Below, piece by piece: positions 43,195 to 43,794 of a stretch of DNA of 64,000 bases. The stretch comes from Escherichia coli (GTDB lineage: Bacteria > Pseudomonadota > Gammaproteobacteria > Enterobacterales > Enterobacteriaceae). The notes under the pieces are model-generated. The model was not told the origin of the DNA, made no database searches, and worked only from the letters and a program-made list of their open reading frames with translations. Location: assembly GCF_051903065.1 (NCBI RefSeq), contig NZ_CP178438.1, one strand, 5' to 3'. The position numbers and the translations under genes were made by a program. Position 1 is the stretch's first letter. Every line of letters begins with the position of its first letter.

Positions 43195-43794
43195 TATTTG
43201 TCCTTAAACCATAAATAATTAAAAATATAAACATTGCAATACATTGATTCAGTCAATAGCAATTATTTATACCCAGCCATTGAATAAGCTATCCGATCTA
43301 ACTAACAAGAAAATAGGTCGCATAAGAAGATATTCTTTGGTGTGGGCGGATGGTGATATTTTGTCTTTATTGTTTCAAATTATATTTACTTAACAGCGAA
43401 TTAAGAACCGCTTAATGTATAGCCAGAATAGAAATATTTTGAGGATTTTCTTATAAAAAAGAAATGAAATGCTTAAAAAATATCTTACACATAATTTCAA
43501 TTTATGAATAACCTGCGCAAAAAAGACAATCTTAGATTAAGTTTGAGATTGTACTTTTTTGAAGTTATACTATTAACACTTCACAAATAATATTAAATTA
43601 AGACACGAAAATATCATTTCTTTTTTTATTATTAACTGTTCTATTAGTTTGATGCTTTGTAAAAATACATTACAACTTAGTCTCATTTCGTCAGAAATTA
43701 ATAGGGAAGCAGAGGAAAAAGTGCGATGAATTCTGTATCGAAGCGTATCAACTCCGTGAAAGGTTTTGAGTGAATATCTACTATTGCAAAAAGA
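43195..43794 (-). promoter_or_regulatory. 600-bp AT-rich noncoding region upstream of the yfc fimbrial operon
   Basis: Very low GC with long A/T tracts and no credible ORF; likely promoter/silencing region. Confidence 0.4.

Follow-up and report, generated by a model that had tools for sequence, protein, structure and literature searches.

The AT-rich spacer upstream of the hyperdivergent yfc fimbrial operon of Escherichia coli as a probable H-NS-silenced regulatory region in two parts

The spacer between sixA and yfcV raises the question of what several hundred base pairs of very AT-rich DNA contribute to the fimbrial operon that follows them. A sequence-only reading had described 43195–43794 as an AT-rich region between the sixA terminator and yfcV, upstream of a fimbrial operon. 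These coordinates are right, and because the sixA terminator hairpin occupies 43796–43828, the interval is the part before the hairpin of a full spacer that extends to 43839 (Table 1). The spacer lies directly upstream of the first gene of the operon and is isolated from sixA by the terminator. The yfcV product matches the Pfam family Fimbrial (PF00419, E 7.7e-17), and the identical protein WP_000033336.1 is named yfcV in RefSeq. In our assessment, the interval probably controls the yfc chaperone-usher operon in cis; it would be silenced by H-NS under ordinary conditions and consist of two parts, a proximal one of about 220 bp that appears to be under sequence constraint and a distal one of about 420 bp that would act mainly through its composition. 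The finding is real and ordinary, as the K-12 locus is already on record as a promoter island that is bound by H-NS and precedes a cryptic fimbrial operon.

Table 1. Features of the sixA–yfcV spacer and its surroundings. Positions refer to the window, i.e. the whole 64-kb stretch of DNA that was analyzed; footprint scores are mean pairwise identities among five lineages.
Feature	Position	Strand	Remarks
yfcOPQRSUV operon	36769–43194	-	hyperdivergent among haplotypes of E. coli; upstream edge formed by the spacer
yfcV	42631–43194	-	major fimbrial subunit, first gene of the yfc chaperone-usher operon; ATG 43194–43192
sixA–yfcV intergenic spacer	43195–43839	-	645 bp, GC 0.287; probable control region of yfc
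Ribosome-binding site, short leader and invariant TATATT	43195–43232	-	TATATT at 43229–43224; footprint score 0.76–1.0
Conserved block TTCAATGGCTGGGTATAAA	43284–43266, within 43261–43300	-	about -67 to -49 from the putative start; candidate activator or UP-type site
Conserved blocks CACACCAAAGAATA and ATCACCAT	43344–43331 and 43357–43350, within 43321–43358	-	invariant columns in 9 alleles; footprint score 0.63–0.73; candidate transcription-factor sites
Weaker conserved block, AGTAAA.TTAAATTG and TCTACAT	43369–43417	-	footprint score 0.60–0.65; end of the constrained proximal part
AT-rich stretch without sequence constraint	43418–43542		GC 0.23–0.28; footprint score 0.38–0.62, mostly 0.40–0.52 (spacer mean 0.49); presumed part of the H-NS binding platform
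Allele-specific palindrome A6-GACAATCT, 13 nt, AGATTGTAC-T6	43519–43559		overlaps the -35 element of the + strand promoter
Distal conserved core with sigma-70-like promoter	43543–43611	+	TTGAGA 43543–43548, 17 nt, TATACT 43566–43571; footprint score 0.53–0.66
Most variable segment of the spacer	43612–43795		footprint score 0.10–0.52; 0.10–0.39 from 43638 on
15-codon ORF	43726–43773	+	Shine-Dalgarno-like GAGGA
sixA intrinsic terminator hairpin	43796–43828		14-bp stem, 5-nt loop; a T run on each strand; border of the hyperdivergent block
sixA	43840–44325	-	
Phage-type integrase next to tRNA-Arg	54228–54899 and 56020–56511		IS-split

The base composition of the spacer is extreme for its surroundings. 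It is the 645-bp tile with the lowest GC content in the window, and 200-bp windows across it have a GC content of 0.23–0.30 compared to 0.507 for the window as a whole. With 71% AT over its full length and 76–77% between 43400 and 43700, it has the composition of an H-NS-silenced promoter region, for which roughly 65–70% AT or more over hundreds of base pairs covering a promoter is expected. Six runs of at least six A or T bases are present, A/T runs of at least four bases occur 2.5 times per 100 bp (1.0 in the window), and TpA steps 10.7 times per 100 bp (4.7 in the window). Enrichment of H-NS motifs beyond base composition was not found in the spacer: the high-affinity motif TCGATAAATT had 2 matches with at most two mismatches, compared to 2.3 ± 1.5 in shuffled sequences and a window average of 0.76 per 645 bp. 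Promoter-like matches, counted with our own PWM and not with PlatProm, reached 61–63 per 645 bp, the highest density in the window (median 8), but did not exceed the level expected from composition (61 versus 64 ± 9 in shuffled sequence), indicating that their density carries no information beyond AT content. In the proposed explanation, the dense promoter-like sequences of the K-12 promoter island would likewise result from AT-rich composition.

Binding data are available for other alleles of the locus. Promoter islands are stretches of at least 300 bp in which PlatProm predicts transcription start points at extreme density, and which bind RNA polymerase and open the DNA but give little full-length RNA. 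The K-12 yfcV/sixA spacer belongs to a set of 78 such islands, under the name 2453647_489, and is scored as bound by H-NS according to both the Kahramanoglou and the Oshima dataset (PMC3661553, Panyukov and Ozoline 2013); the same table also lists spacers next to seven other fimbrial loci, yadN, sfmA, ybgD, elfA, yehD, yraH and fimA (PMC3661553). It contains a genomic-SELEX peak of the RpoD holoenzyme and is marked with an H-NS SELEX site (PMC3946193), a genomic-SELEX peak of the RpoS holoenzyme was reported as well (PMC5493296), and yfcV is included in the list of H-NS-bound genes obtained by ChAP-seq of the three strains K-12, SE11 and SE15 (PMC4720273, S2 table). Yfc fimbriae are called cryptic, and many such E. 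coli fimbriae H-NS-repressed, in a passage of PMC3559732 that cites Korea 2010. Overproduction of BolA in K-12 or of TosR in CFT073 was found to increase yfcV expression, which fits a silenced promoter that is open to activation. The proposal that the region resembles the H-NS-silenced promoter of a cryptic fimbrial operon thus receives indirect support from the K-12 island, the SELEX peaks and the three-strain ChAP-seq listing. As the distal part is only about 50–55% identical to K-12, H-NS occupancy of the present allele is deduced from its composition and from the data on three other alleles, according to which H-NS presumably binds this spacer too. The sense promoter proposed for K-12 (TTGAAA, 17 nt, TATAGT, 384–412 bp upstream; PMC3946193) is not conserved in the present allele.

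The low identity to K-12 extends well beyond the spacer. Gene by gene, the yfc genes are 56–84% identical to K-12 and CFT073 at the DNA level, while prmB, smrB, sixA and fadJ are 93–98% identical to K-12 and 89–96% identical to CFT073. Fourfold sites are 43–60% identical between haplotypes in yfc, compared to 86–94% in sixA and fadJ, and published dS values are 0.57–0.80 for yfc genes and 0.08–0.09 for sixA and fadJ (PMC4720273). The hyperdivergent haplotype comprises the whole yfc operon together with the spacer and ends at the sixA terminator, where near-core identity to K-12 (97.3%) resumes at position 43817, inside the hairpin. Flanking core genes are therefore near-identical between strains next to a spacer that is unalignable: sixA and fadJ are 97–98% identical to K-12, and the distal spacer is 55% identical to K-12 and 51% to CFT073. 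Since divergence on the yfcV side spans the whole operon, the spacer represents the edge of a haplotype and not an isolated swap. Three families of spacer alleles were found in 428, about 3076 and 1227 of 5426 genomes. Despite saturated neutral divergence, ten alleles all have a length of 566–690 bp and a GC content of 0.26–0.33. The stem of the sixA terminator is kept in 11 alleles, with compensatory changes in 6 of its 14 pairs; read on the + strand, the stem is followed by T6, and the K-12 hairpin lacks a T run on either strand.

Conservation in the proximal 220 bp covers the ribosome-binding site, the TATATT hexamer and three footprint blocks (Table 1). Nine alleles, among them those of CFT073 and Pseudocitrobacter, share TTATATT and TTTAAGGACAAATAATG without any variation. 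Judged by sequence, TATATT is a candidate proximal -10 element of yfcV, from which transcription would start near 43217 with a leader of approximately 23 nt; this candidate has a PWM score of 10.8, and the matching -35 hexamer (CTGAAT, 43252–43247) is weak. In MG1655 (NC_000913.3), the equivalent start would lie near 2455668 on the minus strand. Mean pairwise identity in 43261–43300 is 0.71–0.75 among five lineages, compared to 0.49 for the whole spacer. The PS10-3 allele equals the present one up to 43394 and is about 15% divergent beyond, which indicates a recombination breakpoint at this position. The elements between 43195 and 43417, apparently all under constraint, thus comprise a -10-like hexamer, its poor -35 and, further upstream, three conserved blocks, an arrangement typical of an activator-dependent promoter.

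From 43418 to 43839, only a single promoter-like core, together with the sixA terminator, seems to be constrained. Elsewhere the sequence of this distal part, about 420 bp long, has drifted freely; every lineage preserves its extreme AT content, and the length of the whole spacer is maintained. The most likely role of the distal part would be that of a platform on which H-NS nucleates and then spreads or forms bridges, and H-NS bound there may occlude RNA polymerase or trap it at the yfcV promoters. The conserved AT content could, however, reflect mutation bias in silent DNA instead of selection for H-NS binding. The core contains TTGAGA-TATACT, the best promoter match of the region with 10 of 12 consensus bases, which points towards sixA and away from yfcV and is followed by a conserved AAT.AAGAC block. 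Ten of the 11 alleles have their top antisense-strand promoter match 375–386 bp upstream of the yfcV ATG; the -35 variants differ among alleles and the spacers vary from 16 to 18 nt, while TATA.T and the TG of TTG are invariant in 8 alleles. The A/T-symmetric patch at 43543–43611 also yields -10-like hexamers on the yfcV-sense strand. The + strand promoter at 43543–43571 is predicted from sequence and could be functional; transcription from it would start near 43578, with an equivalent in MG1655 near 2456028 on the plus strand.

The interval offers little coding or structural capacity. As the sequence-only reading had stated, no credible ORF is present: each ORF of at least 25 amino acids is interrupted, by a stop or a frameshift, in one or more of the alleles used for comparison, and four are disrupted even in the closely related O157 or PS10-3 alleles, which led us to reject a conserved small protein. 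Among + strand ORFs of 10–30 codons, no homology between allele families was found. The RefSeq annotation shows nothing in the spacer in any inspected genome, including MG1655, and no Rfam 15 family matched the spacer at its gathering score; the best matches were rli52, with 21.5 bits for a gathering score of 70, and, on the terminator, C0465, with 20.2 bits for a gathering score of 40. When folding z-scores were computed in sliding windows along five alleles, the only shared signal was the sixA terminator. Apart from this terminator, the interval thus yielded neither a conserved small protein nor a structured RNA, either of which would have spoken against a silenced promoter region. The EHEC sRNA Esr41 is not encoded in the spacer, since it resides in O-island 43 between z1181 and z1182. 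A repeated binding motif (AAAGACAA, AAAAAAGA) was dismissed because k-mer counts equal those of shuffled sequences and no copies occur in the whittamii, K-12 and CFT073 alleles. The palindrome at 43519–43559 shares its centre with a 16-nt inverted repeat (43455–43470/43611–43626) and gives folding z-scores of -4.6 and -3.4 in 100-nt windows, or -5.8 and -4.4 for 43455–43626, a signal that is absent in the PS10-3, K-12, B1 and CFT073 alleles. A long degenerate palindrome or MITE across 43455–43626 was likewise rejected, as 58% of shuffles match the inner-arm score; this segment shows no length difference to other alleles. A mobile or phage origin of the distal part found no match in plasmid or phage collections.

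The position of the distal promoter allows a different reading, in which it gives rise to a divergent RNA of about 260 nt, terminated near 43831 by the bidirectional sixA hairpin, or else interferes with the yfcV-sense promoters because transcription of the + strand or polymerase occupancy hinders them. If it exists, such a transcript would either act as a regulatory RNA that is missing from the annotation or encode a very small protein. This reading could coexist with silencing by H-NS. The quality of the sigma-70 match, its maintenance at the same position in 10 of 11 alleles with key bases kept while -35 and spacer vary, the T6 behind the terminator stem on the + strand, and the 15-codon ORF with its GAGGA motif in the present allele family all speak for this idea. 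We nevertheless consider it unlikely: the presumed body of the transcript is the least conserved part of the spacer (0.10–0.39), and the folding scan detected no significant RNA structure in 43600–43795. In the present allele family, the segment 43612–43795 contains a patch of about 40% GC and the small ORF. The ORF has 14 codons in PS10-3, lies within a longer ORF of 39 codons in E. whittamii, has acquired mostly non-synonymous substitutions and is without counterpart in K-12, E69, L015 and CFT073. The missing T runs of the K-12 hairpin, the MG1655 record without annotation in the spacer and the lack of an Rfam match add to these doubts. It is similarly doubtful that the distal core sets the on/off state of Yfc, be it via the divergent transcript or as a bidirectional polymerase-loading site, trapped by H-NS, with overlapping sense hexamers; if true, the spacer would be a silencer of conserved architecture and free sequence around a fixed promoter core, and not a passive H-NS sponge. 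At the opposite extreme, most of the spacer might be functionless filler, a degenerate leftover bordering a fimbrial block of ancient acquisition and AT-rich only by mutation bias, with only the last 40–220 bp being of importance. The distal identity of 50–55% equals the neutral level at the fourfold sites of the adjacent genes (43–60%), footprint scores fall to 0.10–0.39 in 43638–43795, and insertions of IS1 in the spacer are tolerated in other strains. However, the maintenance of length (566–690 bp) and GC content (0.26–0.33) in ten alleles despite complete sequence turnover, the conserved position of the distal promoter core and the binding of the K-12 version by both H-NS and RNA polymerase make this explanation quite unlikely.

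Fimbrial promoters are also known for switching, and two mechanisms were considered. A fim-like invertible element, turning the operon on and off by site-specific recombination, could be flanked by the 16-nt repeat, which encloses 140 bp with both distal promoter candidates. A systematic inverted-repeat scan with shuffled controls identified this repeat as the best pair, with one mismatch and no conservation in other alleles. The earlier statement that flanking inverted repeats are absent holds with the qualification that this pair is reached by only 2% of shuffles. Its arms are rich in A/T homopolymers, their complementarity is lost in PS10-3 without compensation and they have no counterpart in other alleles. 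The statement that no recombinase gene is nearby holds in substance: no FimB-, FimE- or IpuA-like gene was found in the window, where tblastn with IpuA and IpuB gave a weak match (E 0.12) to the IS-split integrase at 54228–56511, and this disrupted phage-type enzyme, the sole tyrosine recombinase in the window, is encoded about 11 kb away. The fimS-type repeat TTGGGGCCA was not found in the spacer. Among the genomes analyzed, the present yfcV allele (identity of at least 90%) was found in 428, and a single colinear match to at least 80% of the spacer likewise in 428; the equal counts leave no room for inverted copies, and a second spacer match in O157 records comprises only the 33-nt terminator palindrome. 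With near-chance repeats, no invertase gene and a single orientation in all 428 genomes, an invertible switch, which had already been dismissed from the letters alone, is so improbable as to be negligible. Pap-like phase variation, based on competition between Dam methylation and Lrp at two GATC sites, is highly improbable, too. Such a mechanism would suit a fimbrial regulatory region, and the GATC at 43295–43298, which adjoins a conserved block, is shared by the K-12, B1, whittamii, E69 and MOD1 alleles. This GATC is, however, the only one in the spacer, and a switch of this type was rejected on that ground; it is missing in the CFT073, L015 and Pseudocitrobacter alleles, and the spacer contains no papI- or papB-like and no conserved ORF.

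For the field, these results change little: the K-12 locus was already catalogued, and the general rule that H-NS-bound upstream spacers diverge fast has been published. Our analysis adds the haplotype divergence, the split into a proximal and a distal part and the distal promoter that is conserved in position. The constraint map, with three footprint blocks in the proximal 220 bp and the distal promoter core, shows where to seek an inducer or regulator of Yfc. Promoter assignments for yfcV made in K-12 are not transferable to O157-type or B2-type strains. The yfcV gene serves as a marker of uropathogenic strains. In addition, the spacer is a clear natural case in which composition and length persist through a complete turnover of the sequence.

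The closest known system is the K-12 promoter island itself (PMC3661553), which occupies the same locus between the same genes and has 680 bp with a GC content of 0.32, compared to 645 bp and 0.29 here. The proximal footprints and the position of the distal + strand promoter are common to both. The two belong to different haplotypes, with approximately 97% identity in the first 65 bp, 77% in the proximal 200 bp and 55% in the unalignable distal 400 bp; the present allele does not retain the sense promoter assigned in K-12, and binding is known for K-12 and deduced here. The regions upstream of yad, sfm, ybg, elf/ycb, yeh and yra, chaperone-usher operons that are likewise called cryptic and of a kind often repressed by H-NS, are listed in the same promoter-island table. 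They are also long AT-rich spacers in front of or beside fimbrial subunit genes, but have no sequence relationship to the yfc spacer. The fimS element of type 1 fimbriae is also an AT-rich, promoter-bearing and H-NS-bound spacer upstream of a major subunit gene (fimE/fimA in the island table). It has conserved 9-bp inverted repeats and adjacent fimB and fimE recombinase genes, and occurs in both orientations in populations, whereas the yfc spacer has neither conserved repeats nor adjacent recombinase genes and is found in one orientation. In the pap regulatory region between papI and papB, a spacer of about 400 bp carries divergent promoters upstream of a fimbrial operon, similar to the conserved divergent promoter located about 380 bp upstream of yfcV. 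In pap, the two GATC sites lie within Lrp sites at a distance of about 102 bp, and papI and papB flank the region, while the yfc spacer has one GATC and no regulator ORFs.

H-NS-bound upstream intergenic regions were found to diverge faster than unbound ones; between phylogroups, H-NS stays at the same positions even as the underlying sequence changes (Higashi et al. 2016, PMC4720273). The gene yfcV is a member of this set with a dS of 0.60. The intergenic analysis in that study took spacers of 10–300 bp with an evolutionary distance below 1.0 (PMC4720273), limits outside of which the yfc spacer would fall. In contrast to the pattern described there, the divergence at yfc is that of a whole-operon haplotype and not of the bound spacer alone.

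The window carries smrB, yfcOPQRSUV, sixA and fadJ in the order found in E. coli, with smrB on the plus strand and all the others on the minus strand. The sequence-only reading had described 43195-43794, the portion of the yfcV-sixA spacer ahead of the sixA terminator hairpin, as very low in GC and rich in A/T tracts, and this was confirmed. The spacer has a GC content of 0.287 (0.23-0.30 per 200-bp window; whole window 0.507), the lowest of all 645-bp tiles in the 64 kb, and A/T runs and TpA steps occur at more than twice their frequency in the window overall. It is also the part of the window densest in promoter-like matches (61-63 per 645 bp; window median 8). 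Since dinucleotide shuffles of the spacer give the same number (64 ± 9), this 'island' property simply follows from AT content; the published H-NS motif was likewise not enriched in the spacer over what composition gives. The second lowest GC of the window (about 0.31-0.33), again with dense promoter-like matches, occurs at 50300-50700 around the start of a 343-aa ORF (50524-51555) that has no Pfam match and lies in the position of K-12 yfdF; the neighbouring K-12 yfdF/mlaA spacer is a listed promoter island (PMC3661553).

Features of the yfcV-sixA region, with mean pairwise identity among five lineages
Feature	Coordinates	Strand	Description	Identity
yfcV	42631-43194	minus	187 aa, Pfam Fimbrial; identical protein named yfcV by RefSeq	
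yfcV-sixA spacer	43195-43839		645 bp	
sixA terminator hairpin	43796-43828			
sixA	43840-44325	minus		
Proximal footprint	43175-43232		start codon, ribosome-binding site, leader, invariant TTATATT	0.76-1.0
Conserved block	43261-43300		TTCAATGGCTGGGTATAAA	0.71-0.75
Conserved blocks	43321-43358		CACACCAAAGAATA and ATCACCAT	0.63-0.73
Conserved blocks	43369-43417		AGTAAA.TTAAATTG and TCTACAT	0.60-0.65
Unconstrained stretch	43418-43561		AT-rich	0.38-0.62, mostly 0.40-0.52
Distal promoter core	43562-43611			0.53-0.66
Most variable spacer segment	43638-43795			0.10-0.39

That the region holds no credible ORF was upheld by comparison: no spacer ORF of at least 25 aa is intact across all other alleles compared, and RefSeq annotates no feature in the spacer of any genome inspected, MG1655 included. 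Four such ORFs are already broken in the O157:H7 or PS10-3 allele (98.6% and 88.7% identical to the window, respectively); the 74-aa ORF, for instance, is frameshifted in O157 by an indel in a T run. Rfam gave no match near the gathering score, and folding z-scores along five alleles revealed the sixA terminator as the only shared structured element, its stem being retained in 11 alleles with compensatory changes in 6 of 14 pairs. Neither a conserved small protein nor a structured RNA, which had been named as evidence against a silenced non-coding region, was thus found among the ORFs, in Rfam or by folding. Only the window's allele family has the strong palindrome found at 43519-43559 (z about -4.5), which is degraded in PS10-3. 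The 5-nt loop of the terminator hairpin (43810-43814) reads AGCTG in the window and strain ECNB21-M121 and CAGCT in O157:H7, PS10-3 and Escherichia sp. E1V33, with an identical stem; this is a hairpin-loop inversion, and it causes a second, opposite-strand BLAST match in the latter three. Elsewhere in the window, a 91-bp unit is present at 18055-18414 in four tandem copies, 96% alike, three of which match Rfam naRNA4 (REP-type nucleoid-associated RNA); in K-12 and in CFT073, just one related copy is present, downstream of mnmC.

Among 5426 complete E. coli genomes, 428 carry the window's spacer type, O157:H7 and O145:H28 among them; the K-12/B1 type is present in about 3076 and the CFT073/B2 type in 1227. 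The strain ECNB21-M121 matches the spacer exactly. Upstream of the ATG, identity between the window and K-12 is about 97% over the first 65 bp, 77% over the proximal 200 bp and 55% over the distal 400 bp, and near-core identity returns at the sixA terminator. A local swap of the spacer alone is ruled out, because the divergence extends over every yfc gene: each is 56-84% identical between the three haplotypes, and identity to K-12 is 93-98% for prmB, smrB, sixA and fadJ. Identity at fourfold-degenerate sites is 43-60% in yfcS, yfcU and yfcV and 86-94% in sixA and fadJ, consistent with published dS values of 0.57-0.80 for yfc genes and 0.08-0.09 for sixA and fadJ (PMC4720273). With 55% identity, the divergence of the distal spacer is therefore roughly that of neutral sites in the adjacent genes. 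The PS10-3 spacer is a mosaic: as far as 43394 it does not differ from the window, and past that point it diverges by about 15%. The entire yfc operon (36602-43816) forms a hyperdivergent haplotype block between near-identical core genes, with saturated fourfold sites and the tip adhesin gene yfcO as its most divergent member; the block may stem either from an ancient balanced polymorphism or from repeated import. The usher gene yfcU is intact in the window (883 aa); in K-12, as in several further strains, it is a pseudogene. Two IS1 insertions were seen, one in the K-12-type spacer of SF10, where identity to the window allele stops 65 bp ahead of the yfcV ATG, and one within yfcV in strain CFSAN061762; they lie at L008 2628-3325 and L009 1783-2480. 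Two further records, L014 (labelled Stappia sp., 428 bp) and L015 (a Collinsella metagenome bin, additionally with the end of sixA), contain an E. coli-like yfcV, and their labels most likely reflect contamination or mis-binning.

Further alleles came from species-representative genomes scanned with YfcV (Escherichia sp. E1V33, E. whittamii, E. coli E69, Escherichia sp. MOD1-EC7003, one metagenome bin and Pseudocitrobacter vendiensis). The length of the ten full spacers is 566-690 bp and their GC content 0.26-0.33; footprints were derived from a nine-allele alignment and a five-lineage identity profile. A candidate -10 element, TATATT (43229-43224), is invariant and its paired -35 weak and non-conserved; given the conserved blocks upstream, the proximal region appears to resemble an activator-dependent promoter.

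The best sigma-70 match in the region, TTGAGA (43543), 17 nt, TATACT (43566-43571), is on the plus strand and faces away from yfcV. The top antisense-strand match lies 375-386 bp upstream of the yfcV ATG in 10 of the 11 alleles; the distal matches read TTGAGA-17-TATACT in the window, O157 and E1V33, TTGAAA-16-TATAAT in PS10-3, TTGTAA-17-TATAAT in E. whittamii, TTGGCA-18-TATAAT in K-12 and B1, CTGGCA-18-TATAAT in MOD1-EC7003 and TTGTGA-17-TATAAT in E69 and L015. Across the eight alleles aligned, TATA.T and the TG of the -35 TTG never change, while the promoter spacers vary. Agreement in position within 12 bp among four independent lineages is very unlikely to arise by chance, at an estimated order of 1e-5 if each allele is taken to have about one such site on each strand. 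Transcription from this promoter would extend for about 260 nt to the sixA hairpin, which has T6 on the plus strand in the window's allele. Against a functional RNA, no part of the spacer is less conserved than the body of the putative transcript, which is also without significant structure, and the 15-codon ORF in it (43726-43773) evolves as if unselected and is not matched in the other allele families. Because the A/T-symmetric -10 patch also reads as hexamers resembling a -10 on the opposite, sense strand (TATTAT or TAGTAT), it may be a bidirectional polymerase-binding site.

A fim-like invertible switch would predict flanking repeats, a recombinase and two orientations. The sequence-only reading had seen neither repeats nor a nearby recombinase, and systematic scans agree. 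The best inverted repeat with arms 100-700 bp apart (43455-43470 and 43611-43626; 16 nt, one mismatch) is rich in A/T homopolymers, is equalled by 2% of shuffles and loses its complementarity, uncompensated, in PS10-3; the spacer has no fimS-type repeat, and the window no FimB/IpuA-like gene. The sole tyrosine recombinase in the window is a phage-type integrase beside tRNA-Arg (54005-54079), IS-split and 11 kb away. The window's yfcV allele is present at 90% identity or more in 428 complete genomes, the spacer as one colinear match (coverage at least 80%) likewise in 428, and the second match in O157 records is just the 33-nt terminator palindrome on the opposite strand. A pap-type Dam switch is excluded by the single GATC and the lack of a regulator ORF. 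Slipped-strand phase variation at the A/T runs seems unlikely, because these span no more than 6-7 bases and none falls within a candidate promoter spacer; window and O157:H7 differ by single-base lengths at an A run (43474) and a T run (43621-43627), and an extra T in the sixA-yfcV spacer has also been published for a laboratory-evolved mutant of E. coli ATCC 35218 (PMC10783092). The absence of switch features is shown by this analysis, as are the spacer's anatomy, constraint map and haplotype structure. The integrase belongs to a decayed island at argW (54005-57309), where the window's match to CFT073 stops: after tRNA-Arg (CCT) come a P4-type integrase gene in two parts (54228-54899, 56020-56511), split by a DDE-transposase IS (54945-55913), and then an IS1 transposase (56806-57309). 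Beyond argW, 61071-61222 matches the Rfam group II intron D1-D4 domain (RF02001; 89 bits, E 1.3e-16).

We propose that H-NS nucleates on the AT-rich spacer and then spreads or bridges across it, which would silence the proximal activator-dependent yfcV promoter and trap polymerase at the distal promoter-like sites; silencing would be relieved by H-NS antagonists or by factors that target the conserved proximal blocks. For the window allele, H-NS occupancy, start sites and regulators are what we infer; binding of H-NS and polymerase at the spacer has been demonstrated in published work on other alleles. The K-12 spacer is one of 78 'promoter islands' (2453647_489) and is scored as bound by H-NS in both the Kahramanoglou and the Oshima data (PMC3661553). 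Genomic SELEX gave a peak there for the RpoD holoenzyme and a mark for H-NS, and a promoter, TTGAAA, 17 nt, TATAGT, was picked in it by computation (PMC3946193). The spacer also has an RpoS-holoenzyme peak (PMC5493296), and yfcV is in the H-NS-bound list from ChAP-seq of K-12, SE11 and SE15 (PMC4720273, S2 table). Transcripts of yfcV increase with BolA overproduction in K-12 and with TosR overproduction in CFT073. These data, all obtained on other alleles, agree with the initial suggestion of an H-NS-silenced fimbrial promoter. Where PMC3559732 cites Korea 2010, Yfc fimbriae are termed core-associated and cryptic, and H-NS is said to repress the expression of many fimbriae of this kind in commensal strains. 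The promoter-island table also contains spacers adjoining seven other fimbrial loci (PMC3661553). The allele-level detail added here is new and modest; as an H-NS-bound fimbrial control region, the spacer is already known both in kind and at the yfcV/sixA locus itself.
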